Shown here in pieces: positions 6,418-27,951 of a stretch of 64,000 nucleotides of DNA (positions are counted from its first letter, which is position 1; every line of letters starts with the position of its first letter). The position numbers and the translations under genes are program-made. Source of the DNA: an uncultured Verrucomicrobiae bacterium (GTDB taxonomy: Bacteria; Verrucomicrobiota; Verrucomicrobiia; Chthoniobacterales; JAATET01). The notes below the pieces were generated by a model. That model saw only the letters and a program-made list of their open reading frames with translations. It had not been told where the DNA came from and ran no database searches. Location of the stretch: the NCBI GenBank assembly GCA_963761705.1, contig CAVXHK010000001.1:1283140-1347139 (forward strand), read 5' to 3'.

Positions 6418-6957
6418 ATGTCACGTATCGGAAAAAAAGAAATTGTCCTTCCTGAGAAGGTGAAAATCGCCGAGGGCGACAATCGCCTTGTCACAGTCGA
6501 AGGTCCGAAAGGGAAGCTCGAGTGGACGCTTCCAAAAGCCATTAAGCTGACCGTCGCAGACGGGAAGGCGACGTTCGAGCGCGAAGGGGATGCCCGCAGT
6601 CTTCGCGCACTTCACGGCTTGTCCCGCGCCCTGGTCAACAACATGATCACGGGGGTTTCGACTGGGTTCAAACGCAACCTTGAGATTCAGGGCGTCGGTT
6701 TCAAAGCTGCCATGCAGGGATCGAAGCTCAATCTTAGCCTCGGCTTCTCTCACCCAATCCATCACGAAATCCCCTCGGACCTGACGGTCACCGTGACCGA
6801 TAACACGAAGATCCAAATCGAAGGAATCGACAAGCAAAGTGTCGGCCAGTGCGCCGCCAACATCCGGGCCTACTACCCGCCTGAACCCTACAAGGGCAAA
6901 GGCGTCCGCTACAGCGATGAGGTCGTCCGCCGCAAGGAAGGCAAGAAGGTTCAGTAA
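6418..6957 (+). CDS. rplF: 50S ribosomal protein L6
   Basis: 179 aa; MSRIGKKEIVLPEKV...PYKGKGVRY. Confidence 0.97.
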   Translation: MSRIGKKEIVLPEKVKIAEGDNRLVTVEGPKGKLEWTLPKAIKLTVADGKATFEREGDARSLRALHGLSRALVNNMITGVSTGFKRNLEIQGVGFKAAMQGSKLNLSLGFSHPIHHEIPSDLTVTVTDNTKIQIEGIDKQSVGQCAANIRAYYPPEPYKGKGVRYSDEVVRRKEGKKVQ

Positions 6958-8676: not shown

Positions 8677-10176
8677 ATGATTTCCGCCTTTACCAATATT
8701 TTCAAAATTCCGGAACTCCGGCAACGCGTGTTGTTCACGCTCGCAATGATTGTGATCATGCGGGTCGGAGCGGCGATCACGACGCCGGGTGTGAACGCCG
8801 AAGTTCTTCGCGTTTGGTTTCAGAGCGCCGGGGAAAACACGGGAGGCGGCGTCGCTGCTTTGTTCAACCTTTTCAGCGGTGGGGCGCTGCAGGCGGCGGC
8901 AATTTTTTCGTTGGGCATTATGCCCTACATCTCAGCGTCGATCATGATGCAGCTTCTCACGGCGGTGATCCCGCAGCTGGGCAAGCTCTCCCGCGAAGAC
9001 GGCGGGCGTCAAAAAATTACCCAATACACCCGGTACGCGACGCTTGCGCTCTGCGTTTTCCAGGGTTATCTGCTCGCGCTGTCCCTTGAAAACCCGGCGG
9101 CGAACCCATTCCTTCCGGGGATCACGGACACGATCACCAGACTTGGTATTCCTCTGGTCTCCGACCCGGGAATGGGCTTCCGGCTTCTGACCGTGCTGAC
9201 AATGAGTGCGGGAACGATGTTCCTCATGTGGTTGGGCGATCAGATCACGGATCGAGGAATCGGCAATGGCGTGTCGCTCATCATTACGGTCGGCATCCTC
9301 GCGCAGCTCCCGGCTGGCTTGATTCAGGCGTGGCGCACCTTTGTTCCTACCGGCGACGGGGCAGCACAGGTGAGTCCGGTGGTTCTCGTTCTCATGGTGG
9401 CGTTCCTGTTAATCGTCATTGCGGCGGTGATCGCGGTCACGCAGGCACAGCGAAAGATCGCGATTCAATACGCGAAGCGCGTGGTCGGCCGAAAGGTTTA
9501 CGGCGGGCAGACGCAATACATGCCGCTCAAGGTGAATTACGCGGGCGTGATGCCGATCATTTTTGCTCAGGCAATTCTGCTGTTCCCGTCGACAATCGCG
9601 CAGATGGCGTTTCCACAGTCAGATTTGGCACGTTCGATTGCGGACGCGCTGACAGTAGGTTGGCCGCATTACGTCTTCTTCGGCGCGATGATCTTCTTCT
9701 TTTCTTACTTCTGGGTCGCTACGCAATTCCAGCCTTCGCAGATCGCCGACGATTTGAAGAAATACGGCGGATTCATCCCAGGGGTGCGACCGGGCAAGCC
9801 GACAGCCGAGTTCCTCGATTACACGATGACGCGTCTGACGTTTGCAGGTGCTATTTTCCTGACCATCATTGCCGTTCTCCCCCAGCTGCTGAGCCGATGG
9901 CTCCAAGTCCCCTACATGACCGCGCAGTTCTTCGGTGGAACGGGACTGCTCATTATTGTTGGCGTCGTGCTCGACACCATGCGGCAGATCGAAACGCACT
10001 TGCTCCAGCGCCATTACGACGGATTCCTTCGGAAGGGGAAAATTCGTGGATCTCGCGAGACTCGCCGGATGGGCTCAACCAACGTCATTTCCGACAGCTC
10101 GCTGGTTTGGATCTACGTTGCGATCGCAGTCATCGTCCTCGCCGGAATGACGGTGTGGCTCGCTTCCGGACAATAG
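8677..10176 (+). CDS. secY: preprotein translocase subunit SecY (with ~45-aa C-terminal extension containing an extra hydrophobic helix)
   Basis: 499 aa. SecY hallmarks are present (LFSGGALQAAAIFSLGIMPYISASIMMQLL, ten recognisable TM segments). The tail is LVWIYVAIAVIVLAGMTVWLA. Confidence 0.97.
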   Translation: MISAFTNIFKIPELRQRVLFTLAMIVIMRVGAAITTPGVNAEVLRVWFQSAGENTGGGVAALFNLFSGGALQAAAIFSLGIMPYISASIMMQLLTAVIPQLGKLSREDGGRQKITQYTRYATLALCVFQGYLLALSLENPAANPFLPGITDTITRLGIPLVSDPGMGFRLLTVLTMSAGTMFLMWLGDQITDRGIGNGVSLIITVGILAQLPAGLIQAWRTFVPTGDGAAQVSPVVLVLMVAFLLIVIAAVIAVTQAQRKIAIQYAKRVVGRKVYGGQTQYMPLKVNYAGVMPIIFAQAILLFPSTIAQMAFPQSDLARSIADALTVGWPHYVFFGAMIFFFSYFWVATQFQPSQIADDLKKYGGFIPGVRPGKPTAEFLDYTMTRLTFAGAIFLTIIAVLPQLLSRWLQVPYMTAQFFGGTGLLIIVGVVLDTMRQIETHLLQRHYDGFLRKGKIRGSRETRRMGSTNVISDSSLVWIYVAIAVIVLAGMTVWLASGQ

Positions 10177-10186
10177 AACGAGTTTC

Positions 10187-10846
10187 GTGAAAAGCCGGAT
10201 TGTGCTCTTGGGTCCGCCCGCTTCCGGCAAGGGAACGCAAGCGGAACTACTGGCCCGAGCGTGCGGAATCCCCTCGGCTTCGACTGGAGCGATGATGCGG
10301 GAAGAGAGGGCGCGTGAAACGGAACTTGGTCGCGAGATGGAACGATGGACGAAGGAGGGACGCTTGTTTCCCGACGACGTCGCGGTCCGAATCCTGATTA
10401 ACTGGCTGGACGAGGGGCACTGGGGTGCCTTTTTGCTCGATGGGTTTCCACGAACACTTGGTCAGGCAAAGGCCTTCGATGAAGAATTGGATCGGCGTGG
10501 TGGAAAGATCGATCTGGCGATCAACCTCACGTTGAACGACGACGTAATCAGGGATCGTATTCTGAACCGGGTGACTTGTGTGCGCTGTGGGGCAACCTAC
10601 GGAATGACGTTCCATCGTCTGAAGCCTGGCGACCTCTGCGAGGACTGTGGCGCACGGCTGGAGCGGCGGTCGGATGACACGCCGGAGACCCTGGACCAAC
10701 GCCTCCAGGAGCACCGACGGCACACGAATCCGGTGATCGACTACTATCGGAAATGCGAAATTCTCAACGACGTGGACGCTTCGGCGGGACGGGACGCCGT
10801 TTTCGCGGCAATCTCACAGACCCTTGGTTTGGAGGTGACGAAGTGA
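10187..10846 (+). CDS. adk: adenylate kinase (Cys4 zinc-lid type)
   Basis: GTG start. P-loop GPPASGKGTQ. Lid region CVRCG...CEDCG. Confidence 0.95.
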   Translation: MKSRIVLLGPPASGKGTQAELLARACGIPSASTGAMMREERARETELGREMERWTKEGRLFPDDVAVRILINWLDEGHWGAFLLDGFPRTLGQAKAFDEELDRRGGKIDLAINLTLNDDVIRDRILNRVTCVRCGATYGMTFHRLKPGDLCEDCGARLERRSDDTPETLDQRLQEHRRHTNPVIDYYRKCEILNDVDASAGRDAVFAAISQTLGLEVTK

Positions 10847-11610
10847 TTCCTCGAAAATCGGCTTCGGAAATTGAAAAAATGCGTCGCTCCGGGGAGTTGG
10901 CGGCAGAAATTCTGAATCGCGTCGCGGATCAGATCGCGCCGGGCGTCACCACGCAGGAGTTGGACGATTTAGCTGGCCAGCTGATCGCCGAAGCCGGGGC
11001 CAAGAGCGCTTTCAAAGGCTACCGGGGCACGTTTCCGGGTGAGCTCTGCATCTCCGTAAACGATGAAGTTGTTCACGGATACGGGGGACCGCGCAAGATT
11101 GCTTACGGCGATATCGTGACCCTCGACTGTGGAGTGATCTTCAACGGTTACATCGGCGACACGGCGTCGACGATTCCCGTCGGCATCATCGATCCGGCGA
11201 CGGAGAAGTTGCTGCACGTGACGGAGCAAATCCTCATGGAAGCGATTCAGCTGGCGCGCGGCGGCAGGCGCCTGGGCGACATGTGTTCGTTCATCGAGGC
11301 CGAGACAGTGCGGCACGGGTATTCCGTGGTGCGTGAGTTCGTTGGGCACGGTGTCGGGCGGAAATTGCACGAGGACCCGCAGGTTCCCAACTACGGCAAA
11401 CGGGGGACCGGGCCGAAGCTCAAGTCGGGCATGACCCTGGCGGTCGAGCCGATGATCAACCTGGGAGCGGCGGAGGTCGAGGTGCTCGACGATAAGTGGA
11501 CGGTGGTGACCCGCGATGGATCGCCTTCGGCGCACTTCGAGCACACAATTTTAATCACCGATGGAGCACCAGAAGTGTTGACATCAAAACGGAGATCGCT
11601 ATTGAAATAA
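10843..11610 (+). CDS. map: type I methionine aminopeptidase
   Basis: Track ORF 10753..11610 trimmed to GTG 10843, which overlaps the adk stop (GTGA). Motifs: SASEIEKMRRSG, HGYGG, FVGHGVG, EHTILIT. Confidence 0.93.
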   Translation: MIPRKSASEIEKMRRSGELAAEILNRVADQIAPGVTTQELDDLAGQLIAEAGAKSAFKGYRGTFPGELCISVNDEVVHGYGGPRKIAYGDIVTLDCGVIFNGYIGDTASTIPVGIIDPATEKLLHVTEQILMEAIQLARGGRRLGDMCSFIEAETVRHGYSVVREFVGHGVGRKLHEDPQVPNYGKRGTGPKLKSGMTLAVEPMINLGAAEVEVLDDKWTVVTRDGSPSAHFEHTILITDGAPEVLTSKRRSLLK

Positions 11611-11800
11611 GGAATACGGTCGTCGAGGTGTCCCTAGACGATGGTTTTGCGTCTCCGGATGCTGACCGGAGGGACGCCCGACCAAGCTACCGGAGCCAGG
11701 AGAGGATGCCCATCATCCGCATCCTCCCAGACGACTCGTCCGGGCCGCAGCGACGCCGCATGACCCGGCTTCGGCCATCGAAATCATTTCCTAAATCCGC
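11580..11800 (+). pseudogene. infA: decayed translation initiation factor IF-1 (infA) relic
   Basis: The slot between map and rpmJ normally holds infA. Frame 0 reads IKTEIAIEIRNTVVEV...ERMPIIRILPDD, which resembles IF-1 (AKEDxIEMEGTVVE...KMRxxyIRILPGD). There is no start codon. The centre and C-terminus are recoverable only weakly in other frames (TPHDP vs SPYDL). Confidence 0.45.
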
Positions 11801-11806
11801 AAAACC

Positions 11807-11920
11807 ATGAAAGTCCGAGCCTCCGTCAAGCGCCTCTGTGAGAGCTGCAAGATCGTCAAGCGGCAGAATGTCGTCCGCGTCATCTGCAAGAATCCCCGTC
11901 ACAAACAAAAACAGGGCTAG
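11807..11920 (+). CDS. rpmJ: 50S ribosomal protein L36 (zinc-binding C3H form)
   Basis: 37 aa, [37 protein letters not shown]. Too short to appear in the ORF track. Confidence 0.93.
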
Positions 11921-11995
11921 AAAACTTTCGATCCTCGCTGTTTTCGAGTGGTCGAATTCTCCCTCTGATTCCTTCAACCTTACCCTTTAAACATT

Positions 11996-12391
11996 ATGCC
12001 ACGCCTACTCGGAGTCGACATTCCTGGAAACAAACGCATCGAAGCTTCCCTTCCCTACATTTACGGGATCGGGCCGAAGACCGCCAAAAAGCTGCTCGAG
12101 CAGTCGGACATCGATCCGAACCTTCGGGCTAAGGACATGACGCCCGAGCAGATCGGCACGTTGATCCACGCGATCAGCGAGAGTCGCGTTGTCATCGAAG
12201 GAGATCTCCGCCGCGAAATTCAGGGAAATCTGAAACGGCTTCAGGCGATCAACTGCTATCGCGGGATCCGCCATCGCAGGGGGCTTCCCGTCCGCGGTCA
12301 GCGCACCCAAACGAACGCGCGCAGTCGCAAGGGGCCGCGTCGCACGGTTGGCGTTCAGCGCAACCCGAATGCCAAGACCGGCAAAGTTTAA
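11996..12391 (+). CDS. rpsM: 30S ribosomal protein S13
   Basis: 131 aa; [26 protein letters not shown]. Confidence 0.97.
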
Positions 12392-12424: not shown

Positions 12425-13207
12425 ATGGCCGACGAAGAAAACACACCGAACGAAGAAACTCCCGAGAACGAGGTTAAGGCTGAGGCCAACCCGGAAACGG
12501 CTCCCGAAGCGAGCGAAACACCAGCTGCCTCGGAAGAGGAAGCAGTGACCGCCACACCAGCCGACGAGGCAGGGTCCTCCGTCGAAGCGAAGAACGAAGA
12601 AGCGCCGAAGGCGGAAGCTGCTCCGGAGGTCGAGGAAGCGCCAAAGGCCGAAGAGACGAAAATTGAAGACCCGAAGGCTGATGTTCCGAAAGCGGACGAA
12701 GTTAAGACCGATGAAGCCGCTGCGCCGAAGGCAAAGGCACCCAAGAAGTCGAAGAAAAAAGAGGCCGAGGCAACGACGTCCGCCCAGCCCTCTGCGGTCA
12801 GCATCTCGCTGGACGACAACATCGAACCAATCAAGGTCGTCAAAGCCAAGGGGAGCAAAAACGTCCACACGGGTATTGCTCACGTTCAGGCGAGCTTCAA
12901 CAACACGATCGTCACCATCACCGACCTCACCGGAGCGGTGCTTGGTTGGTCCAGCGCAGGCAAGTGCGGCTTCAAGGGCTCTCGCAAGAGCACGGCTTAC
13001 GCCGCGCAGATGGTCGCGCAGGATGCCTGCCGCCAGGCCATGGGCCACGGAGTAAAAGAGGTCGAAGTGCGCGTCAAGGGACCGGGTTCCGGGCGTGAAT
13101 CCTCGGTCCGTGCGATGCAGGCCATCGGATTGGACATCAGCACGATCAAAGACGTGACTCCAGTGCCGCACAATGGTTGCCGCCCGCCGAAACAGCGCCG
13201 CGTCTGA
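12425..13207 (+). CDS. rpsK: 30S ribosomal protein S11 with ~140-aa acidic/Ala/Pro/Lys-rich N-terminal extension
   Basis: 260 aa. The C-terminal ~120 aa are canonical S11 ([18 protein letters not shown]...[13 protein letters not shown]). No in-frame ATG/GTG/TTG lies close to the conserved core; the nearest in-frame start downstream of ATG 12425 is a GTG near 12545. Confidence 0.9.
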
Positions 13208-13853: not shown

Positions 13854-13905
13854 TTTCCCCGACACTCAGGTTGCGCGGGTCAGTTTGACTGCGCGGCCCC
13901 GAAGA

Positions 13906-13940
13906 GGCGTTCACCGGTTGTATTGGTGAGCGCCTTTTTT
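13906..13940 (+). terminator. rho-independent terminator after rpsD
   Basis: 10-bp stem GGCGTTCACC/GGTGAGCGCC (one G-U pair), 9-nt loop, followed by TTTTTT. Confidence 0.7.
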
Positions 13941-14316
13941 GCGGGAGCGTTCGGGGGGGCGATGTGACAAATTGTGCGATGGAACATCGCTCGATGCTCG
14001 GGAGATGATGGAGACAAGCACCCGCGGGGTGTCAGCCTTGCCCTCGATGGGGGGCGCCGCGCGCTTGTCGGAAGGGCACAATTCGAGACGTTTCCCGACG
14101 ATCGATCCCACTTTTTGGTGGGCGCTGTGCTGGTCCCGCGAGAGGGGAGGCGACGATGCTTCACGCTGGAGTCAATTTCCGTCGCCTTCTCGCAATGCCA
14201 GATTTCCATCGATTTCTGGAATCGTGCGAGAGGCCGCGAGTGCGACTTGATCTCAGAACAAGCTTCCAAAGCGCCAAGGTGCGCGCGCGAAAAATGGCAG
14301 CACTGCCATTTGAATT

Positions 14317-14378
14317 TGGGTCGGCGGTTGGAAATCGCCGTTCTTTGAGTTGTCCGTTCCCGCAGCGGCTTTGCGGAC
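14317..14378 (+). repeat. copy C of a dispersed ~50-nt element (degenerate -12 box), preceded by a perfect palindrome at 14292..14311
   Basis: TGGGTCGGCGGTTGGAAATCGCCG...TTTGAG...CTTTGCGGACG aligns with copies at 15799 and 20036. The hairpin CGGCGGTT-GGA-AATCGCCG is conserved. Confidence 0.45.
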
Positions 14379-14401
14379 GTCCACTGAGCGCTGGGAGAGA
14401 G

Positions 14402-14599
14402 CTATCGGGCAGCTTTTGCCGGGCGGTGGCGAGACTTGAAGACCGTGACCGCGGTGAGGGTCAGGGCAATGAGGGCGGCGGCGGGCGCGAGGTGGAGGAG
14501 CGAGTGGGTCGTCGTGTCGACTGCCTCCGGGTGGCCGCCGTGGGCGAAGGCGACGATGGGGAGTGCGAAAATCGAAAGAGTGGTGAGAATAGTTTTCAT
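14402..14599 (-). CDS. small His-rich secreted/membrane-anchored protein
   Basis: 65 aa, taken from the 3' end of an otherwise spurious 927-aa track ORF. Signal peptide MKTILTTLSIFALPIVAFA, then HGGHPE..THSLLH, then a C-terminal TM helix. Confidence 0.5.
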   Translation of the reverse strand: MKTILTTLSIFALPIVAFAHGGHPEAVDTTTHSLLHLAPAAALIALTLTAVTVFKSRHRPAKAAR

Positions 14600-14894
14600 C
14601 GGCAGCGGCGCTGAGAACTTGAACGTGGTGGGATGGATTCGCAATTGGAAACTGAACGGGACCAGGTCCGACTGAGGATTTTGCTGCCGCGATTGATTTC
14701 GTCTTCGAGGCGATCGATGAGGTCGGTGACGTCGCGGTCTCCGTTTTTCATGAGCTCGATCTGGATGATGAGCACCTCGGCGGTAGTGAGGAGGGTGCGT
14801 GTTCGAGCGACTCGGCGGTGTCTGGGTAGGATTGGTCGCTGGCCCGTCGGCGGAGTTCCTCGTTCCTAACAAGGGTGGGCAGGGGACTGGCCGT

Positions 14895-15746
14895 CTACCT
14901 TTGGATCTTGGCTTCGATTTGGCCGTGGGGGTCGTCGGCGGGGAGGAAGGTGAGGTTGGGGTTCTCGAAGCCGAGCGGTGCCAGGTTGGCAGTGAAGTAG
15001 TGCTTGTTGGGCATGCTGAGGTCGATTTCGGCGATCGCGGGGGCGGCAGCGAGGGCGGCTTCGCCCATCTCGAAGAGGGTGCGCTGCACGGAGGGGCTAA
15101 AGTTTTTGGTGAAAATGGCGAGGAGGGTTTCGCGGACTTGGGCGTTGGTGGCACGGAAGTCGCCTTCCGGCTTTTCCCACTTCCACGTGGCGGCCAGTTC
15201 GGTGGAGAGGATGCGGTCGGCGGCGTCTGGAAGGGTGGTGAATTCGGTGTGGTCGAAGCCGGTGAAGGCGGAGTTGGTCGCGTTAAGAATGACGAGTCCG
15301 CGGACCCCGGAGTGGAGGGTGAAGCCGTCGCGGGTGGCGAGGAGGCGGGTGAACGGTTGGCCGCCCGCGGCGGCTTGGAAGCTGTGGGGGGCGGGTTCGC
15401 CGTCGACGGTGAGGCGCTGCCAGGTGAACTCGCGGAGCTCGACGTGGACGCGGTCGACGTGGGGGTGGGTGTCGAGGAAATGGTGGCCGAGGATGAGGGC
15501 GAAGTCTTCGATGCAGGGTCCAAGGTGCTGGTGGGCGAGGGCGATGATGGTGTTTTTACACGTGTCGGTGGCGACGATCTGGGAGTTGTCGTTGCCGAGG
15601 TAGGAGCGTTCGAACGCGCCTTCGAGGAGGACGTCGGCGTTGATTTCGACGACGGATTGGGTGTCGCCGTCGACGTGTTTGCGAAGGACGCGGACGCATT
15701 GCTTGCCGTAACGATTGGTACCGAGTGTTGCCATGGGGTGGAGCAT
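14895..15746 (-). CDS. uox: urate oxidase (cofactor-independent uricase)
   Basis: 283 aa. Contains YGKQCVRVLRK, a TDTCKNT-like T-fold repeat and the SMPNKHY motif. Alternative ATG at 15734. Confidence 0.88.
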   Translation of the reverse strand: MLHPMATLGTNRYGKQCVRVLRKHVDGDTQSVVEINADVLLEGAFERSYLGNDNSQIVATDTCKNTIIALAHQHLGPCIEDFALILGHHFLDTHPHVDRVHVELREFTWQRLTVDGEPAPHSFQAAAGGQPFTRLLATRDGFTLHSGVRGLVILNATNSAFTGFDHTEFTTLPDAADRILSTELAATWKWEKPEGDFRATNAQVRETLLAIFTKNFSPSVQRTLFEMGEAALAAAPAIAEIDLSMPNKHYFTANLAPLGFENPNLTFLPADDPHGQIEAKIQR

Positions 15747-15798
15747 AGCGTGGATCGCGGGGGGTTTTCGAAGAAAGATTTGACGCTCCGATTCCCCG

Positions 15799-15847
15799 CT
15801 GGTTCGGCGATTGCAAATTGTCGCTCCTTGAGGTGCCCTTGCGGACG
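15799..15847 (+). promoter_or_regulatory. copy A of the dispersed element: sigma-54-like -24/-12 motif plus hairpin, immediately upstream of uraD
   Basis: CTGGTTCGGCGATTGCAAAT has GG-N10-GC spacing and matches TGGCACG-N4-TTGCW at 10 of 12 positions. Hairpin at 15805..15823. The element ends at the uraD ATG. Confidence 0.45.
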
Positions 15848-16318
15848 ATGGAAAGAGGAGATCTGGATGGGGTGTGGGAGCACTCGCCTTGGGTGGTGGA
15901 TCGGGCCTGGATGGGGCGGCCCTTTGCGGATCGGGAGGAGTTGATTGCGGCCATGGAGGGGGTGGTTGATGCGGCGTCGGGGGACGAGCGGCTGGCGCTC
16001 ATCTGCGCGCACCCGGACCTGGCCGGGAAGCTGGCGGCGGCGGGGCGGTTGACGGCGGAGTCGACGGGGGAGCAGGCGGGGGCGGGGCTGGATGCATTGA
16101 CGGATGAGGAGCGGGTGGCTTTCGGGGAGCGGAACGAGGCTTACCGGGAGCGGTTTGGGTTCCCATTTATCATCTGTGCGCGGGAGCACGGTAAAGGGGG
16201 GATCCTGGCCGAGTTTGACCGGCGGTTGGGGAATGGGCTTGAGGAGGAAAGGCGGGTGGCCATTTCGGAGATCAAGAAAATCGCGCGGTTGCGGGTCCTC
16301 GATCGGATCGCGGGATGA
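15848..16318 (+). CDS. uraD: 2-oxo-4-hydroxy-4-carboxy-5-ureidoimidazoline (OHCU) decarboxylase
   Basis: Track ORF (TTG 15818) trimmed to ATG 15848. Contains EHSPWVV, AHPDLAG, ESTGEQAGAGL and FPFIICAR motifs. Confidence 0.88.
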   Translation: MERGDLDGVWEHSPWVVDRAWMGRPFADREELIAAMEGVVDAASGDERLALICAHPDLAGKLAAAGRLTAESTGEQAGAGLDALTDEERVAFGERNEAYRERFGFPFIICAREHGKGGILAEFDRRLGNGLEEERRVAISEIKKIARLRVLDRIAG

Positions 16319-16363
16319 TTTTTTCTCGCCCGGAAGCGCTGAGGTGCTGAGGGTCGGAGAATC

Positions 16364-16693
16364 ATGGCTGGGAAGTTGACGACACACGTGTTGGATCTGG
16401 TGAAAGGTCGGCCGGCCGCGCGGATGCGGATCGAGCTGGTCGACGACATGGGCGGACTGCTCAAGGACGTCGTAACGAACGACGATGGGCGCACGGTGGA
16501 GCCGATGCTTTCGGCGGCGGAACTGCGGGAGGGGACGTTCGAGCTGAGGTTTCACGTGGGGGACTATTTTGGGGATGCGGAGGGATTTCTCGACGTGGTG
16601 CCGATCCGGTTTCGGATCGCGGAGTCTGGGGGGGCTTTTCACGTGCCGCTGCTTTGCACGCCGTGGAGTTATTCGACTTACCGGGGGTCTTGA
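16364..16693 (+). CDS. uraH: 5-hydroxyisourate hydrolase (transthyretin-like)
   Basis: 109 aa; LTTHVLD...[17 protein letters not shown], with the C-terminal YRGS signature. Confidence 0.92.
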
Positions 16694-17913
16694 AAGAGGG
16701 GGATCCATATGAGGTCGGTGCCGCCCGGTTAATCGGATGGATCGACGAACTCGCGGCGGTGTCGGACGACGTCGTTGGAACGACGCGGACGTTTTTGTCG
16801 CCAGCGATGGCCGAGGCGAACGCGATGGTGGCGGGCTGGATGCACGGGGCGGGGATGTCCGCACGGATCGACGGTGCGGGGAATCTGGTCGGGCGGTGCG
16901 AGGGGGCGGGGGACGCGGTGCTGCTGACGGGTTCGCACCTGGACACGGTGCGGAACGCGGGGCGGTTCGACGGGATCCTGGGGGTGCTGCTGCCGATTGT
17001 GGCGGTCGAGTTGTTGCGGGCGGACGGTTGGGAGCCGGGGTTTTCGCTGGAGGTGTTTGGATTTGCGGACGAGGAGGGGGTGCGTTTTCAGGCGGGTTGT
17101 CTGGGGAGTAAGGCGGTGGCCGGGCGGCTGTCCGAGGCGGACTTCGAGTTGCGGGACCGGGATGGAGTGACGTTGCGGGAGGCATTGGTTGCGTTCGGTG
17201 GAGGGGAATATCTGGCTCCGTCTTGGCCGGCGGGCCGGGTGTTGGGTTACGTCGAGGCGCACATCGAGCAGGGGCCGGAGCTGGAGCTGGCGGATTGTCC
17301 GGTGAGCTTGGTAACGGGAATCAACGCGCAGCACCGGATCGCCGTGCGGGTGACGGGGCGGGCGGGGCACGCGGGGACGACGCCGATGGCGGCGCGGCTG
17401 GACGCGGGGGTCGGGGCGGCGGAATTCGCGGTCGCGGTCGAGCGCTTTGCTCGGGAGGCGGCGGGTCTCGTCGCGACGATCGGGATGTTGGAATTGCGGC
17501 CGGGGGCGGGAAACGTGATCCCGGGTGAGGCGGAGTTTTCGCTGGACGTCCGGCACGCTTCGGACGCGAGGCTGGGGACGGCTTGCGCGGGGCTGCGGGA
17601 GCGATTGGCGGAGATCTGCGCGAGACGCGGGTTGGGATTCGATTGGGATGTGGTGGACTCGATGCGGGCGGTGGGATTTGACGAGGGCCTCACGTCGGGC
17701 TTCGAGGCTGCGGTGCGGGCGGCGGGTTGTTCGGTGCTCGAGCTGCGGAGCGGGGCGGGGCACGACGCGATGGTGCTGGCGGAGCGGTGCCCGACGTCGA
17801 TGCTGTTCGTGCGGTGTCGGGGTGGGTTGAGCCATCACCCGGAGGAATTTGTTTCGGTGGCCGATGTCGCGGTGGCGTTGCGGGTCTTTTGTTCATTTTT
17901 GCGGGGGTTGTGA
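16654..17913 (+). CDS. allC: allantoate amidohydrolase (M20 family)
   Basis: Contains [19 protein letters not shown] and FADEEGVRF. The start is uncertain: ATG 16654 gives a 40-nt overlap with uraH, while TTG 16690 gives a 4-nt overlap. Confidence 0.85.
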
Positions 17914-17915
17914 AG

Positions 17916-19266
17916 ATGCGGGGAATGGTGATTCGGGGCGGCACGGTGGTGACGGACGACGCGGCGAGGGTGGCGGACGTGCGGATCAAAGCCGGACGGA
18001 TCGCGGAGATCGGGCCGGGGCGGGACCGAGTCGGACGATGTGATCGACGCGACCGGGGCGTGGGTGCTGGCGGGGATCGTGGACGGGCACGTGCATTTCA
18101 ACGAGCCGGGGCGGACGGAGTGGGAGGGATTTGCGACCGGGTCGCGGGCCTTGGCGGCCGGGGGTGGGACGACGTTCATCGACATGCCTCTCAACGCGTC
18201 GCCGCCAACGGTGGATCGGGAGGGTTTCGAATTGAAACGGGCGGCGGGCGAGGCGAGTTCGGTAATGGATTTTGCGCTCTGGGGTGGGTTGATTCCAGGG
18301 AATACGGGGCGGATGGAGGAGCTGGCGGCGTGCGGGGTGGTGGGATTCAAGGCGTTCATGTTGGACAGCGGGGTCGACGATTTTCCCGGGGTGGACGTGG
18401 CGACTTTACGGCGGGGGATGAGGGAAGCGGCCAGGCTTCGGCTGCCGGTGGCGGTGCACGCGGAGGACGCGGGAATCATCGCGCGGCAGACGCGGGTCTT
18501 TCAGGACGCGGGGCGGCGGGACGCGCGGGCGTTTTTGGATTCCCGACCGACCGAGGCGGAGGTCGAGGCGGTGCGGGTAGCGCTGGACGTGGCGGGCGAG
18601 ACCGGGTGCGCGCTGCACGTCGTGCACGTCAGCTGTCTGGAGGCGGCGGAGCTCATCGCCGAGGCGCGGTTGAGGGGGGCGGACGTGACGTTGGAGGTGT
18701 GCGCCCACCACCTGCTGTTGGACGAAGAGGAGACGTTTCTGCAGGGAGCGATGGCGAAGTGCGCGCCTCCGCTGCGACCCGCATCGACGGTATCGGAAAT
18801 GCGGGACTTGCTGCTCGCCGGGAGGGTGGATGTCGTGGGATCGGATCATTCGCCGGCTCCGCCAGAGATGAAGACGGGGGACGATTTGTTTGCGGCTTGG
18901 GGGGGAATCATGGGTTGTCAGCACGGGTTCTTGTTGCTGCTCGATTGGTTGATCCGGAAGGACGTGGGTCGTCTGCCGGAAGTGTGGCGGACGTTGACGA
19001 CGGGACCGGCGCAGCGATTTGGGCTGCCGAAGCGGGGGCTGGCGGTGGGTGGCGACGCGGACCTCATCATCGTGGAGACAGTGGAGGACCGGGTGATCCG
19101 GCGGGAGGAGCTGCTCACGCGGCACCGGACGTCGCCTTACGTTGGGAAAAGGCTAGGGGTACGGGTGCGGGAGTCTTATCTGCGGGGAGAACCGCTCGTT
19201 CACCGTAGCGACGAAAACGTGACGGGGCGGGGACGGTTTTTGAAACGATCCGGGCGGCTGCCGTGA
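17916..19266 (+). pseudogene. allB: allantoinase interrupted by an apparent 1-nt frame disruption near 18018-18024
   Basis: Codons 17916..~18020 in frame 0 read MRGMVIRGGTVVTDDAARVADVRIKAGRIAEIGPG, the AllB N-terminus. The remainder, from ..TESDDVIDATGAWVLAGIVDGHVHFNEPGRTEWEG to the stop at 19266, is in frame 1. The switch lies within GGGCCGGGGCGGGACC. Confidence 0.85.
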
Positions 19267-20006
19267 AGGTAGAATTCCTGGTAATCGGGGCGCAGAAGTC
19301 CGGGACGACGGCGCTCAATCGGATGCTCCGGCAGCACCCTGGCTTGTGTCTGGCCGAGAAGAAGGAGGTTCATTTTTTCGACCGGGACGCGGCGTTTGCG
19401 GATGGGGACCCCGATTGGGAGGAGTATCATTCTCATTTCTCGCCGGGGGACGGACAAGTCGTGGGGGAAAACACGCCGGTGTATCTGTATTGGAAGCCGG
19501 CGGCGGAACGGATTGCGCGATACAACCCGGCCATGCGCCTGCTGGCGGTGCTGCGGGATCCGGCGGAGCGGGCGTTTTCACATTGGCAAATGACGACGCG
19601 TAATGGTGATGAGACGCTGCCCTTTAGCGACGCAATCCGGCGGGAGGAGGAGCGGTGCGCCGCGGCGGGGCCTGGCGGGGCGGGGCAGCACCGGTTCTGG
19701 TCCTACGTGGATCGGGGGCGCTACGCGGGACAGATCGAGCGGTTTCGGCGGTTCTTTCCGGTGAAGCAGATGCTGGTGCTGCGGAGCGAGGAGCTGCGGG
19801 AGGAGCCGCAGGAGGTGTATGAGCGGCTGGCGGATTTCTTGGGCTTGGAGCGGCGGCAGTTTCGGGTTCGGCGGAAGCCGGTGAAGGTGCGTTACACGGA
19901 CGAGATGTCGGCTGAGGATCGGGAGTATCTGCGCGGGGTGTTTGCGCCGGAGGTGGACGCCCTGGAGGAATTGCTGGGGTGGGATCTGGTGGCGTGGCGG
20001 GGATGA
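19263..20006 (+). CDS. sulfotransferase family protein
   Basis: 247 aa. PAPS-binding-like 5'-PSB motif VIGAQKSGTTAL. The GTG start overlaps the allB stop (GTGA). Confidence 0.8.
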   Translation: MKVEFLVIGAQKSGTTALNRMLRQHPGLCLAEKKEVHFFDRDAAFADGDPDWEEYHSHFSPGDGQVVGENTPVYLYWKPAAERIARYNPAMRLLAVLRDPAERAFSHWQMTTRNGDETLPFSDAIRREEERCAAAGPGGAGQHRFWSYVDRGRYAGQIERFRRFFPVKQMLVLRSEELREEPQEVYERLADFLGLERRQFRVRRKPVKVRYTDEMSAEDREYLRGVFAPEVDALEELLGWDLVAWRG

Positions 20007-20035
20007 TGGGACGTGTCCGGCGGAGGCGGAGCGGA

Positions 20036-20088
20036 CTGGTTCGGCGATTGCAAATCGCCGCGCCTTGAACGGTTGCGCCCTTGCGGGT
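20036..20088 (+). promoter_or_regulatory. copy B of the dispersed element: sigma-54-like -24/-12 motif plus perfect hairpin, upstream of cimA
   Basis: CTGGTTCGGCGATTGCAAAT is identical to copy A over 20 nt. Hairpin CGGCGATT-GCA-AATCGCCG, followed by CCTTGAA and CCCTTGCGG blocks. Confidence 0.45.
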
Positions 20089-20119
20089 GGTGGTGCGGTC
20101 GGGTAGTTATCGCGGTCCG

Positions 20120-21712
20120 ATGGAAGCGAAACGAGTGACCCTCTACGACACGACTCTGCGCGATGGGACGCAGGGGACGGGGATTTCGTTTTCGGTTCAA
20201 GATAAGATCCGGGTGGCGGAGCGGCTGGATGCGTTTGGGTTCGACTACATCGAGGGCGGTTGGCCGGGGTCGAATCCGCGAGACGTGGCGTTTTTTCAGG
20301 AGGCGGCGAAGCGAACTTGGAAAAACGCGAAAATCGCGGCGTTTGGCATGACGCGGAGGGGGAAGCTGGGGGTCGAGGACGACGCGCAGGTCCGGTTGTT
20401 GCTGGAGGCGGAGACGCCGGTGGTGACGATCGTGGGGAAGACGTGGCCGCTGCACGTGACGGAGGTTTTCAACGTCTCGCTGGAAGAAAATCTGGCGATG
20501 ATCGCGGACACCGTCGCGTTTTTGAAAATAAACGGTCGCGAGGTCATCTACGACGCTGAGCATTTTTTCGATAGTTACGTCGAAGACACGGAGTATTCGC
20601 TCGCGACGGTGCGGGCGGCGCGGGACGCCGGGGCGGATCTCGTGGTGCTCTGCGACACGAACGGCGGGTCGATGCCCGAGACTGTCGGGTCGGTCACGCA
20701 GGACGTGATGGCGCACCTCGGCGTGGCGGTCGGCATCCACACTCACAACGATTGCGGGGTCGGGGTGGCGAACGCGCTCGCGGCGGTTCGCGCTGGAGCA
20801 GTGCAGGTGCAGGGCACGATCAATGGCTACGGCGAGCGGGTGGGGAATTGCAACCTCACCAGTGTGATTCCAAATCTTCAGCTCAAGCTCGGCCTGCCGG
20901 TCGTCGACGATCTGTCACGTCTCCGGGAACTTGCGGTCTTCGTTGACGAGATGGCGAACGTGCCGCACGACATCCGCGCTCCCTACGTCGGAGCCGCTGC
21001 GTTCACCCACAAGGGTGGGTTGCACGTCCACGCGGTGCAGAAGCTGGCGCGAACTTACGAGCACGTGCCGCCGGGTGTGGTGGGGAATCGGCAGACGATC
21101 GTCGTCTCGGATCTCTCGGGTCAGTCGAACGTGCTGATCAAGGCGAAAGAGCTTGGGTTCGACTTGGCAAAAGGGGCGCCGGAGGTCGCGGCGACGTTGG
21201 CCGAGATCAAACGGTTGGAGAACGACGGGTTCGAATTCGAGGCTGCTGACGGGTCATTCGATTTGCTCGTGCGGCGGTCGCTGGGCGCTTGGCGGGCGTT
21301 GTTTGATCTGAAGGAATATCATTGCACGTTCCGACACTCGCCCGTTGGGGGGTCGGTCAACACGTGCGAGGCGACCGTGAAACTGCACGTCGGCGGCGAG
21401 GCGGAATACACCGTGGCCGAAGGTGATGGACCGGTGAACGCGCTGGACGCGGCGTTGCGAAAGGCGTTGCGACCATTTTACGGCTGGATCGATGGGATCG
21501 CGCTCACGGATTACAAAGTGCGGATCGTGGACGGGAAAATGGGGACCGCCGCCCGGACCCGGGTGCTCATCGAATCGGCGGATGGTGAATCTTCCTGGGG
21601 AACGGTTGGCGTGTCGGACAACATCATCGAAGCCAGCTGGCAGGCGCTCGTGGATAGCTACGAATACGCCGCGCTGAAGAGCGGGCGATTGAACGTGGAG
21701 GCTGCGACGTGA
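20120..21712 (+). CDS. cimA: citramalate synthase (LeuA-related, CimA type)
   Basis: Track ORF trimmed to ATG 20120 (MEAKRVTLYDTTLRDGTQG). Contains HTHNDCGVGVANALAAV and a C-terminal LeuA-dimer-like domain. Confidence 0.88.
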   Translation: MEAKRVTLYDTTLRDGTQGTGISFSVQDKIRVAERLDAFGFDYIEGGWPGSNPRDVAFFQEAAKRTWKNAKIAAFGMTRRGKLGVEDDAQVRLLLEAETPVVTIVGKTWPLHVTEVFNVSLEENLAMIADTVAFLKINGREVIYDAEHFFDSYVEDTEYSLATVRAARDAGADLVVLCDTNGGSMPETVGSVTQDVMAHLGVAVGIHTHNDCGVGVANALAAVRAGAVQVQGTINGYGERVGNCNLTSVIPNLQLKLGLPVVDDLSRLRELAVFVDEMANVPHDIRAPYVGAAAFTHKGGLHVHAVQKLARTYEHVPPGVVGNRQTIVVSDLSGQSNVLIKAKELGFDLAKGAPEVAATLAEIKRLENDGFEFEAADGSFDLLVRRSLGAWRALFDLKEYHCTFRHSPVGGSVNTCEATVKLHVGGEAEYTVAEGDGPVNALDAALRKALRPFYGWIDGIALTDYKVRIVDGKMGTAARTRVLIESADGESSWGTVGVSDNIIEASWQALVDSYEYAALKSGRLNVEAAT

Positions 21713-22173
21713 CGGGCGAAGATTGGGTGCAGGCGACGAACCTGGTTCTGCTTGGGCTCCTGGCGGGGTGTGACTTGGCGTCCGTGCTGTTCGTGCAGCC
21801 CGCTTTGGTGCGGCTGCCGGAGACGCAGCGGGCCGAGGCGGTGCGGGCGGTTTTCCGGCGGACGGGGCGGCTACTGCCGGTGCTCGCGGTCGCCGGGCTG
21901 GTGACTGCCCTGGCTGCGACCGGGATTGTGGCGGTGACTCGGACGCTGAGCGTGTGGTTGCCGCTGATCGGTTTGCTGGCGCTCGCGGGTATGGTCGCGG
22001 CGAGCGTGAAGGGAAGTCTGCCCGCTTTGAAGGGCTTGCTCGCGCTGCCGGATGGCACCGATGAGAAAGCGTGGAAAGTGCTGTGGCACCGATGGGACCG
22101 CTGGCAGACGCTGCGGGTCGGCTTGGAGATCGTGGCGCTCGGAGCCTTCGCCGTGGCGGCGGTCTGGGAATGA
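21709..22173 (+). CDS. DUF1772-like integral membrane protein
   Basis: 154 aa with four hydrophobic helices. The GTG start overlaps the cimA stop. Confidence 0.6.
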   Translation: MTGEDWVQATNLVLLGLLAGCDLASVLFVQPALVRLPETQRAEAVRAVFRRTGRLLPVLAVAGLVTALAATGIVAVTRTLSVWLPLIGLLALAGMVAASVKGSLPALKGLLALPDGTDEKAWKVLWHRWDRWQTLRVGLEIVALGAFAVAAVWE

Positions 22174-22357
22174 GGCGGGGCGATCCGTTTTCCGGGTAGG
22201 GAAGCCGCGCGGTTGGGTGCCCGCTTTCAAGACGGGGGCGTGCGATCCACGCTGAGTGGAAGATCGCTTCGGGTCGGCGATCCACCCGCTGGGAGCAAGT
22301 CACGGAACCCGCGGCGCGGCTTCCCTTCCCAGGTGTCGATGCGGTAGCGTTCGCGAC

Positions 22358-23638
22358 GTGGCGGGTGAATCTTTGACTTTGCAGAAACTGGTTCACCCGA
22401 AGGAGGAGACGTATTTCATCGCTCTGCTCGTGATCTCGGTCCTCATCTGGATCGTTATCTCGTGCTTCGCGATTTTCTTTTTACCGTTCGTCGCACTGTT
22501 CGGGTGGCTTGCGAACGGATTATTCGTCGCGCAGCTGCGGAGCGAGTCCGTCGAGGTGACGGAGACGCAGCTACCGGCGCTCCACCGGGCGTTCCGCGAG
22601 ACTTGTGACCGGCTGGCGCAAACGAAGATGCCGCGGCTTTACGTGCTACAGGCGGGCGGGTTGCTGAACGCTTTCGCGACGCGCTTCTGTGCTCGAGATT
22701 TCGTGGTTCTTTATTCGGACATCGTCGAGGCGACGGGCACGGATTCGTGCGAGATGCGGTTCATCTTGGGACACGAGATCGGGCACGTGCGGCGAAAGCA
22801 TCTTCTCAAGGAGCTCATTCTCCTGCCGGGCCTGTTGTTGCCGCTGATCGGAAATGCCTACCGCCGGAGCCGCGAGACGACGTGTGACCGCTACGGGATG
22901 TTTGCTGCGAACGACGCGCGCGGCGCGGTGCAGGCGATGATGATGCTGGCCGGAGGGCGCGAGGCGAAGCGGTTGTTTTTGCCCGAGGAATTTGCGGACC
23001 AGGCGGTGCGGGAGCGTGGGTTCTTCGTGTCGTGGCACGAACTGCTGTCGAGCTATCCGACCTTGTCGCGGCGAGTGGCTGATCTGTTGGCGCTTGAGCG
23101 TGGCGAGCCGGAGCGCAAGCCAAAGCGTCACCCGCTTGCTTACGTGATCGCCCTGTTTTCACCGAGCACGCCGGGCGGCGGGGTCGGGAGTCTGATCGTC
23201 ACCGTTATCGTGTTGTTCTATCTGGCGATGGTCGGGGCGTCCGTGCTGGTGCCGGTGGTTACAAAACTGGCGGCGAAAGACAATGCGGCTGCCGTCCAAG
23301 GATCGGCGGAATCCGACTTAGTTCAGTCCGAAGTCCGGGAGGACGGTGTCATCGAGACTGGCTTGATCGGCGAATGGATCGGTTCGTCGCCGGAAGATTC
23401 GATGACCTGGACGACGAAGCGAATGGCCGATGGGACGTTGGAAACCATCTTTGACGAGGCGACGGACGACGAGTTCCGTCAACTTGGAGACTGGCGGGTC
23501 GTCGGCGACACTTACTACGAACTCCTCGGTGCGAACGGCATGGTTGAGTTCGAGATCATCGAGCGAAGTGACGGAGTGGTTAAATTCGTCGACGAGGGAT
23601 CGGGGCCGGATTCGGCCTACGTCGAACGACGGAAATAA
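22358..23638 (+). CDS. M48-family zinc metalloprotease, membrane-embedded, with extra C-terminal domain
   Basis: HEXXH motif (LGHEIGHVRRKH) and N-terminal TM helices. The track start at 22256 lies inside a structured non-coding element, so the in-frame GTG at 22358 is preferred. Confidence 0.75.
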   Translation: MAGESLTLQKLVHPKEETYFIALLVISVLIWIVISCFAIFFLPFVALFGWLANGLFVAQLRSESVEVTETQLPALHRAFRETCDRLAQTKMPRLYVLQAGGLLNAFATRFCARDFVVLYSDIVEATGTDSCEMRFILGHEIGHVRRKHLLKELILLPGLLLPLIGNAYRRSRETTCDRYGMFAANDARGAVQAMMMLAGGREAKRLFLPEEFADQAVRERGFFVSWHELLSSYPTLSRRVADLLALERGEPERKPKRHPLAYVIALFSPSTPGGGVGSLIVTVIVLFYLAMVGASVLVPVVTKLAAKDNAAAVQGSAESDLVQSEVREDGVIETGLIGEWIGSSPEDSMTWTTKRMADGTLETIFDEATDDEFRQLGDWRVVGDTYYELLGANGMVEFEIIERSDGVVKFVDEGSGPDSAYVERRK

Positions 23639-23644
23639 CGGCGC

Positions 23645-24349
23645 TCAGATCGTCGTGTAGAGGAGCCGATTGCAGTTCGGGCAGTGGACGATTGCCTTCG
23701 ATGCTTTGACGGCGAGAACGGTCTGCGTGGTGACTTTGACGTGGCAGCCGGTGCAGTTGTCACCATCGAGTTCCACGATGGCGGTGCCGAGTTTGCCTTT
23801 GAAGATGCGGTCGTATTGATCGAGGAGATCTTCGTCGAGTCCTTCGGTGAGCGCTGGGCGACTGGCGAGAAGCTCCGTTACGGAGGCATCGACGTTGACC
23901 TTTTTCTTGCCGAGTTCGGTGATTTGGGTCTCGAGTTTGGCGCGCTCCTCGGTGTGGGCTCGTTCGGCCTCGGCGACGGCGGGCTGGAGGGATTCGGTCT
24001 CCTCCATGAGGTCGAGTTCACGATCCTCGATCGCGCGGATCGACTTCTCGGCGGTCTCGATCTCGTGGCCGAGGGCGGCGAATTGTTCATTCTTACGCGT
24101 CTCGAGCTGCTGAGTTTTGTAGCGGGCGATGTTGCCGCGTTTGGTGCCGGCTTCGAGTTCGAGAGATTTTCGCTCGAGTTCGATGGCGCGGAGGCGCGTC
24201 TTGGAGGCTTCCAGGCGGGCGGCTGAGGAGGCGATCTGCTTCTCCTTCGCGGCCTTTTCGTCCGGGATGGCGGCGAGTTCGAGTTTGAGTGCGCGGATGC
24301 GTTGGTCGCGGTCCTGAATGGTGAGGAGGGTTTCGATTTCCGGAAGCAT
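23645..24349 (-). CDS. coiled-coil protein with C-terminal C4 zinc ribbon (COG1579/DUF164-like)
   Basis: Track ORF trimmed to ATG 24349 (MLPEIETLLTIQDRD). The C-terminus is CTGCHVKV...HCPNCNRLLY. Confidence 0.8.
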   Translation of the reverse strand: MLPEIETLLTIQDRDQRIRALKLELAAIPDEKAAKEKQIASSAARLEASKTRLRAIELERKSLELEAGTKRGNIARYKTQQLETRKNEQFAALGHEIETAEKSIRAIEDRELDLMEETESLQPAVAEAERAHTEERAKLETQITELGKKKVNVDASVTELLASRPALTEGLDEDLLDQYDRIFKGKLGTAIVELDGDNCTGCHVKVTTQTVLAVKASKAIVHCPNCNRLLYTTI

Positions 24350-27878: not shown

Positions 27879-27951
27879 GGCTGGATAGCTCAGTTGGTAG
27901 AGCAGAGGATTGAAAATCCTCGTGTCGGGGGTTCGATTCCCTCTCCAGCCA
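27879..27951 (+). tRNA. tRNA-Phe (anticodon GAA)
   Basis: GGCTGGATAGCTCAGTTGGTAGAGCAGAGGATTGAAAATCCTCGTGTCGGGGGTTCGATTCCCTCTCCAGCCA forms a cloverleaf with a 7-bp acceptor stem and a TTCGATT T-loop. CCA is not encoded. Confidence 0.95.

Follow-up and report, generated by a model that had tools for sequence, protein, structure and literature searches.

We analysed a 64-kb stretch of DNA (hereafter the window) from a soil member of the Verrucomicrobiota, in which the spacer between map, for methionine aminopeptidase, and rpmJ, for ribosomal protein L36, is the slot that holds infA, the gene for initiation factor 1 (IF-1), in intact relatives. IF-1 is universal and essential, and infA is among the most stably placed of bacterial genes. 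An earlier note on this DNA had proposed that the spacer contains a decayed infA. The operon in the window reads secY (8677-10176), adk (10187-10846), map (10843-11610), the spacer, rpmJ, rpsM, rpsK, and rpsD. The map stop codon TAA lies at 11608-11610 and rpmJ starts at 11807, leaving a spacer of 196 nucleotides (nt) at 11611-11806, not the 197 nt given previously. Relatives were collected by a Map scan of genome representatives and from contigs encoding an identical RpmJ; L-numbers denote the fetched map-rpmJ loci of these other lineages. By these Map and RpmJ comparisons, the window belongs to a group of Verrucomicrobiota related to Chthoniobacterales/Terrimicrobiaceae. We refer to the 155 nt at 11611-11765 as the relic core. 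The features of the locus are as follows.

10843-11610, plus strand: map, methionine aminopeptidase, recognized as an open reading frame (ORF) with homologues; its last 28 nt are the former infA codons 1-9, as in the 28-nt map/infA overlap of intact relatives.
11583-11794, plus strand: infA relic, from an ATC at the former Met1 to a TAA (11792-11794) in the -1 frame, based on the DNA profile, the fixed-register comparison, and intact orthologues.
11583-11585, plus strand: lost start codon, ATG to ATC in the alignments; ATC, AAT, or ATT in the other relic lineages.
11611-11641, plus strand: 5' strand of the predicted helix H1, former codons 10-20, from the minimum free energy (MFE) folds of the window and L103, the alignment fold, and pair counts; the block is kept in all six relic lineages.
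11642-11668, plus strand: predicted hairpin P2, which varies more than any other part of the core; two of its pairs show compensatory changes among the four long relics.
11702-11726, plus strand: predicted hairpin P3 (GAGGAUGC / GCAUCCUC), former codons 40-48, invariant in the relics and found in a weaker form in intact genes.
11733-11736, plus strand: position of a 1-nt deletion of secondary origin (CAGACGA-CTCG, where L103 has CAGACCAACTCG) that shifts the SPYD-derived TPHD to the -1 frame.
11736-11764, plus strand: 3' strand of the predicted helix H1, former codons 51-61, from the MFE folds of the window and L103 and pair counts.
11766-11806, plus strand: A/T-richer, poorly conserved tail up to the rpmJ start, with an identity to L085 of 0.67 as against 0.89-0.95 upstream.
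11807-11920, plus strand: rpmJ (L36), the first gene 3' of the relic, followed by rpsM, rpsK, and rpsD.

The relic is about 7 nt shorter than an intact infA of 219 nt, so that about 97% of the gene length is left. Its GC content is 0.65, compared with 0.49 in the tail, and the tail carries no Shine-Dalgarno sequence ahead of rpmJ.

Descent of the spacer from infA

The translation quoted in the earlier note is present in one plus-strand frame (ORF 11496-11810), which runs over the end of map and the spacer and reads IKTEIAIEIRNTVVEVSLDDGF...ERMPIIRILPDDSS; it is followed in the -1 frame by TPHDPASAIEIIS and a stop codon. For the comparison with IF-1, the register was set beforehand by synteny: in the intact orthologues, infA begins within map, 28 nt from its end, at the counterpart of window positions 11583-11585, and these genes read ATG where the window has the ATC that had been noted at Met1. 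In this fixed register, the gapless match to IF-1 claimed earlier holds, with 15-16 identities over 72 positions and z = 4.3-5.8. The score was reached by at most 1 of 20,000 shuffles for three canonical IF-1 queries and by none for L082 and Bacillus subtilis, and residues 11-53, which lie 3' of the map stop, gave z = 4.3-5.7 in the same register. Two further observations of the note, the loss of the central OB-fold residues and a TPHDP in another frame, were also borne out: the core FRVELENGH...AHISGKMR is replaced by FASPDADRRDARPSYRSQER in the gapless register, and TPHDP stands in the -1 frame through a 1-nt deletion near 11734/11735. Since L103 has the same C-terminal residues in a single frame (IIRILPDQLVRAAATPHD), this frameshift is a secondary event in the window.

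As an approach that takes no position for granted, a DNA profile (nhmmer) was built from four intact genes, using only the part of infA beyond the map stop. A blind search of the 64 kb gave a single match at 11615-11765 on the plus strand (E = 3.2e-6), the next best lying at 0.68, and the same profile found the L085 and L103 relics at about 1e-4. A weak second match in L007 (5510-5602) was dismissed as spurious. Searches at the protein level found no IF-1 in the spacer. Pfam and NCBIfam, run on all frames and on a frame-repaired translation, produced no IF-1 match, their only match (Phage_T4_Gp30_7, E = 0.039) being noise; tblastn of the window with Escherichia coli IF-1 gave E = 36 for the spacer, on a par with dozens of chance matches, and the relic remained at noise level with the E. 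coli, B. subtilis, and Thermus proteins; and a hidden Markov model (HMM) of 120 IF-1 proteins from the same order ranked the spacer only second (independent E-value 1.3). The homology is therefore demonstrable only by synteny and DNA-level comparison, and the six-frame search with PF01176/TIGR00008 that the earlier note had recommended, which gave no match, would have led to its wrongful dismissal. The practical lesson is that scans with protein profiles miss such relics completely, while synteny and DNA profiles from close relatives reveal them.

The position between map and rpmJ and the 28-nt overlap with map are the same as in the intact orthologues. Taken together with the profile match (E = 3.2e-6), these comparisons make it nearly certain that window 11583-11794 is homologous to infA, and on this point the earlier note was right. 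The relic cannot encode IF-1. One could picture a functional, extremely divergent IF-1 made from a non-AUG start, as 75 codons are open from the ATC in the window and the N-terminal and IRILP motifs are kept. We find this scarcely credible, because no IF-1 profile matches, FASPDADRR... stands in place of the beta-strand core FRVELENGH..., 1-nt indels occur in L081 and a stop after the former start in L001, two-thirds of the relic are gone in L001 and L083, and the substitution pattern is noncoding.

No intact infA was detected in the 64-kb window by tblastn or with the IF-1 HMM, nor was a second copy detected in the fetched loci by tblastn for double copies. All six of the IF-1 clusters that were looked up (P0001, P0002, P0005, P0006, P0032, and P0103) lie in the normal slot. 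Our single ground for supposing that IF-1 comes from a further infA copy at some other genomic site is that the factor is known to be essential; a clade with no IF-1 gene whatsoever is very unlikely.

Intact relatives and the history of the loss

An intact infA occupies the slot in L082/84/86, L098, L099, L100, L105, L109, and L113; in these loci other than L109, the gene has 72-79 codons and Map is 70-73% identical to that of the window. The infA stop codon overlaps the rpmJ ATG (ATGA) in L113/L114 and lies 4-21 nt upstream of rpmJ in the other intact relatives. Because the infA stop overlaps or closely approaches the rpmJ start and rpmJ is without a Shine-Dalgarno sequence, L36 synthesis was probably coupled, ancestrally, to infA translation.

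Comparison of the spacer in close relatives, which the earlier note had advised, revealed the relic in L085, L103, L081, L001, and L083, with intact infA in sister lineages. There are thus six relic lineages: the window, L085 (Map 92.5% identical), L103 (88%), L081 (identical to L104; 83%), and L001 and L083 (82-84%). Besides the source genome of the window, relic-bearing assemblies are CAVUDH01 (MFD03250.bin.2.59), JBARCF01 (GCA_049793755.1), the bins with ERZ25039505 contig_6573 and contig_28627, and JGI 3300037326. The infA ATG is missing in all six, and an altered 5' part is common to them; the overwritten center is common to the window, L085, L103, and L081. L001 and L083 have lost the 3' two-thirds of the relic and have spacers of 115-116 nt, a stop codon directly follows the former start in L001, and several 1-nt indels are seen in L081. 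Since the altered 5' part and the lost ATG are common to the six lineages, infA died once, in their common ancestor. In that ancestor, the start codon was lost and codons ~22-40, encoding the OB-fold core, were overwritten; a 1-nt deletion in some lines and the large 3' deletion in L001/L083 followed later.

A second relic was found outside the group that holds the intact lineages, in L002 (6760-6953; MFD04580.bin.2.110; Map 63%). Its pattern is the opposite one, with the N-terminal half erased, while ...KVRLPVIHNLPRRKVMLNISPYDLTKARN is still matched by the IF-1 HMM (1.7e-6). This independent relic means that infA was lost from its slot at least twice. In L010, L017, L029, L036, and L077, map is directly followed by rpmJ with no infA, and L041, from a more distant member of the Verrucomicrobiota, has no IF-1-like ORF in the slot. 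Metagenome contigs, in a collection that lacks this clade, were scanned twice with relic motifs, giving no match in the first scan and 11 unrelated chance matches in the second.

Intact ORFs in the slot also vary. IF-1-like ORFs of unusual divergence were seen in L004 (6750-6956), L007 (727-927), L061 (about 6726-6950), and L020 (6744-6938), which belong to other Verrucomicrobiota, including an Akkermansia sp. and a metagenome-assembled genome of the Limisphaerales. These ORFs are 43-49% identical to B. subtilis IF-1, compared with 65-88% in most surveyed bacteria, and the L061 ORF gave no tblastn match at E ≤ 1e-3. Judged by sequence, their divergence may reflect relaxed constraint or a second copy. 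In L109-L112 (JGI 3300050210/11, SRR35795012/13), the in-slot IF-1 (P0103) is unusually divergent for the order (…SLVRVRSGDTVKVEVSPYDLDKGRIISRQNETSKPVHQ) and has the lowest H1 complementarity among the intact genes, 12 of 22 pairs; rpmJ is present in these loci, though uncalled by the gene finder.

Conservation and predicted folding of the relic core

Compared with the other relic lineages, the window has an identity of only 41-49% at the four-fold degenerate sites of secY, adk, map, rpsM, and rpsD and of 45-57% in the ordinary intergenic DNA of the operon. The relic core, in contrast to the four-fold sites, is 91% identical to the window in L085, 92% in L103, and 79% in L081 (Fisher p from 7e-17 to 1e-29). 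The conserved block begins sharply at the map stop, and the constraint on the relic is as strong as that on the amino-acid-determining positions of the neighboring genes. The GC content of the relic, 0.65, compares with 0.41-0.49 in the true spacers of the locus. It is highly probable from these sequence comparisons that the core is under purifying selection at the nucleotide level.

Several other causes of the conservation were considered and rejected. A tract brought in by recombination or transfer would not fit, because the last 40 codons of map have no raised synonymous identity (0.47-0.62, as in the rest of map). A repeat or mobile element was discarded, the relic being single-copy in the window. 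As for coding, the 20 differences of the window from L085 are spread 3/8/9 over the codon positions of the old infA frame, stops interrupt both of the remaining frames, and 1-nt indels occur in L081; for these reasons no protein on either strand explains the constraint.

The earlier note had seen in the spacer a rare snapshot of gene relocation out of the spc/alpha cluster, which would make the relic a recent, neutrally decaying, functionless pseudogene. Such decay would accommodate the disabling lesions (no start codon, lost core, frameshift), the deletion of two-thirds of the relic in L001 and L083, and the independent L002 relic at a different stage of decay. We nevertheless hold it to be very improbable, since a core identity of 79-92% stands far above that of four-fold sites and ordinary intergenic DNA, the GC content is unlike that of the true spacers, and the changes from intact genes perfect a helix and do not scramble it (see below). 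As judged from sequence divergence, the relic is not drifting, and neutral evolution after inactivation is contradicted. Nor does "snapshot" fit its age: the relic is ancient, being carried by six lineages whose synonymous sites are near saturation, with a core that appears to be under purifying selection.

What is conserved may be an RNA fold. The cores of the window and L103 were independently predicted to adopt the same fold (z = -2.5 and -2.85), in which H1, an interrupted long-range helix of 22 pairs between 11611-11641 and 11736-11764, encloses P2 and P3. Pairs in H1 were counted after three relics and seven intact genes had been aligned without gaps in codon register. Canonical pairs number 20-22 of 22 in the relics and 12-16 of 22, overall about 15, in intact genes of the order, while slid partners give 4-13 of 22. 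The same register in 57 infA genes of other phyla yields 10.7 ± 1.6 of 22, the same background level as for slid partners; on this count, the idea that H1 simply follows from encoding IF-1 was rejected. From the intact genes to the relics, three pairs changed on both sides and still pair, all six mismatches became pairs, three G.U pairs became G-C, and none was lost, with all of the two-sided changes on one branch. The pairing of H1 is 77% as compared with 32-47% for slid partners, and none of 500 shuffles, uncorrected for relatedness, reached its pairing, its two-sided changes, or its covariation score. Most substitutions between relics fall in P2, where two pairs change on both sides (C-G/G-C and C-G/U-A) in a sample of only four sequences. 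The many G.U pairs indicate RNA of the plus strand. An alternative local pairing, P1 (11622-36 with 11670-82), fits three relics and is largely broken in L081; it is a possible alternative conformer of the H1 5' strand.

These results moderately support a constraint that acts on plus-strand RNA predicted to fold into an H1-closed domain, and we lean somewhat toward RNA structure as the basis of the conservation of the core. Several points weigh against this interpretation. H1 was derived from relic sequence, the two-sided changes in it all fall on the single intact-to-relic branch, and its shuffle control ignores relatedness. Synonymous changes in the intact L098, L099, and L109 genes break H1 pairs without compensation, and selection may not have acted on the helix while the gene was alive. 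There are only four distinct long relics, with which the local-structure test has no power; the MFE z-scores are modest, and the intact L105 scores as well as the relics. L001 and L083 are without P3 and the 3' strand of H1, yet the 5' strand is conserved in them, so the domain is dispensable in these two lineages and H1 is not the whole story. No Rfam family matched the element, either at the gathering threshold or at E ≤ 10, where there was only noise, and a scan of 11300-12100 found no promoter or terminator consensus. The replacement infA, finally, was found neither in the window nor in the fetched loci.

The two truncated relics deserve a closer description. In L001 (6769-6884) and L083 (2886-3000), where P3 and the 3' strand of H1 are gone, CGGTCGTCGAGGTGTCCCTGGACGATGGTTTCGCGTC is almost unchanged. 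This CGGTCGTCGAGGTGTCCCTGGACGATGGTTTCGCGTC block can form a hairpin of its own and holds a conserved GAGGTG-N10-ATG. Because the 5' block is kept in L001 and L083 without its partner, it must have a role of its own.

Two other kinds of constraint could act on the same nucleotides. One would be an element that works at the DNA level, for instance an extended promoter or an operator of an rpmJ-rpsM-rpsK-rpsD unit. The nucleotide-level conservation does stop about 40 nt 5' of rpmJ, where the A/T-rich segment starts, and the operon organization of the clade is unusual, with rpoA and rplQ absent downstream. On the other hand, the consensus scan shows no sigma-70-like promoter, and known promoter regions do not resemble a stretch of about 150 nt with 65% GC and ~90% identity; where P2 varies, the changes preserve pairing and make use of G.U pairs, which are of consequence in RNA alone; and the two blocks with the highest conservation are mutually complementary. 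A DNA element is, in our judgment, unlikely.

The second possibility, which we consider more improbable still, is a translated upstream ORF that delivers ribosomes to the rpmJ start, which lacks a Shine-Dalgarno sequence, or that makes a new small protein. The ancestral infA and rpmJ genes were coupled on this view, and in the window, L103, L083, and L001, despite differing spacer lengths, an ORF in the old infA frame (GTG at 11627) runs as far as a stop that overlaps the rpmJ ATG or adjoins it; L081 has another ORF that ends 3 nt before the ATG; and the ATG at 11641 is preceded by GAGGTG, conserved in all six lineages. There is no such ORF in L085, however, that of L081 is in a different frame, and runs of ~40-60 open codons are fairly frequent by chance in DNA of 63% GC. 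A peptide whose sequence is irrelevant would leave 90% nucleotide identity unexplained, no frame has a synonymous excess, and two of the three frames have stops. A DNA-level role and a ribosome-delivering upstream ORF are both less likely than an RNA fold acting in cis.

The surrounding cluster, known systems, and possible meaning

Downstream of the relic, rpsK (12425-13207) encodes an S11 of 260 amino acids, of which only residues 150-259 match the Pfam S11 domain. The preceding N-terminal extension of 149 residues is acidic and rich in Ala, Pro, Glu, and Lys; it occurs in relatives too, with varying length (S11 called at 223-267 amino acids), and its conservation is the lowest among the coding parts of the operon (nucleotide identity to L085 of 0.65-0.72). 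The rpoA and rplQ genes that come after rpsD in a typical alpha operon are missing from this position; the ORFs in window 13854-23700 include those for an M20 peptidase, a LeuA/HMGL-like enzyme, and an M48 peptidase. The genes after rpsD vary by locus in relatives (adenine glycosylase, MMPL, DUF192, secretin, TPR), and because they differ between loci, the cluster ends at rpsD in this group. In L113 (2667-5028; GCA_041748215.1), there is no adk between secY and map. The C-terminal codons (E)VLT of Map spell a perfect TTGACA at 11577-11582, directly 5' of the former infA start, in the window and nearly all relatives; the consensus scan found no -10 element matching it. Elsewhere in the window, a tRNA gene at 27879-27951 is the sole Rfam match at the gathering threshold in the 64 kb, and very long ORFs rich in Pro, Arg, and Ser, one of them, for example, of 927 amino acids, run antisense to or overlap real genes (14402-17185 on the minus strand and others); they look like artifacts of the 63% GC content and not genes.

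A close parallel to the relic lies in plastids. Angiosperm plastids reportedly carry infA pseudogenes, the subject of a study said to be that of Millen and co-workers in Plant Cell, 2001, "Many parallel losses of infA from chloroplast DNA...". That title phrase occurs in passages of the plastome papers PMC3696114 and PMC5476734. In both settings the same gene, in the ancestral ribosomal protein cluster beside rpl36/rpmJ, was repeatedly inactivated and left a recognizable relic, with at least two independent losses here (the window clade and L002). In plastids, the function is supplied from another location. Our case differs in that the bacterium is free-living, the relic appears to be under strong purifying selection, and the replacement copy was not located.

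The E. coli infA lies outside the spc/alpha cluster and is monocistronic. In bacteria of that type infA has left the map-rpmJ slot, and it is also lacking there in L010, L017, L029, L036, and L077; no trace of the gene stays in the slot of such genomes, whereas nearly its whole length remains in the window. Leaders of ribosomal protein operons form the r-leader families of Rfam, and the pseudoknot of the E. coli alpha operon binds S4. The relic resembles such leaders in being a conserved noncoding segment with a predicted fold, directly 5' of ribosomal protein genes in an operon with rpsD (S4). It differs from them in matching no Rfam family, in deriving from a protein-coding gene, and in being absent or truncated in two lineages of the clade. 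A further likeness is to RNA structures inside coding sequences and to exapted pseudogenes, as H1 is partly present in the intact infA ORFs of the order and persists after the death of the ORF. We know of no described case of such exaptation for infA or the bacterial spc/alpha cluster, and no bacterial precedent surfaced in literature searches, one of which was obscured by matches to "infant".

The explanation that best covers the observations as a whole, and one we regard as reasonably probable, is that the spacer is an infA-derived RNA element that has been selectively retained. More tentatively, and with slightly less than even confidence, we propose that the dead infA was exapted as a structured, cis-acting RNA: a helix embedded in the living infA mRNA would have outlived coding and then been perfected by compensatory and mismatch-repairing substitutions. 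H1 would have been about two-thirds present in the intact infA mRNAs of the order and completed once the coding constraint was lifted. After the death of infA, the last ~40 nt would have turned A/T-rich and variable, consistent with an open initiation region, and the 155 nt upstream would have been frozen as a compact fold. The fold would act in cis where the secY-adk-map and rpmJ-rpsM-rpsK-rpsD parts of the transcript meet, replacing the ancestral infA-to-rpmJ translational coupling; mRNA processing, mRNA stability, or access to the rpmJ start that lacks a Shine-Dalgarno sequence are candidate roles. Action of the predicted domain on the map-rpmJ junction of the polycistronic ribosomal protein mRNA is weakly supported, and any one specific function that might be named for the relic is doubtful.

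Bacteria as a rule lose their pseudogenes fast (Kuo and Ochman 2010, PMC2916853), and it is unusual that this dead gene was not cleared. With infA dead in its ancestral slot in the whole clade and in L002, free-living bacteria have presumably replaced the gene or moved it. If the RNA-structure interpretation is true, the relic would be a clean natural case of a coding sequence turned into a regulatory or structural RNA, and it would mark a previously unrecognized control point at the spc/alpha operon junction of Verrucomicrobiota.

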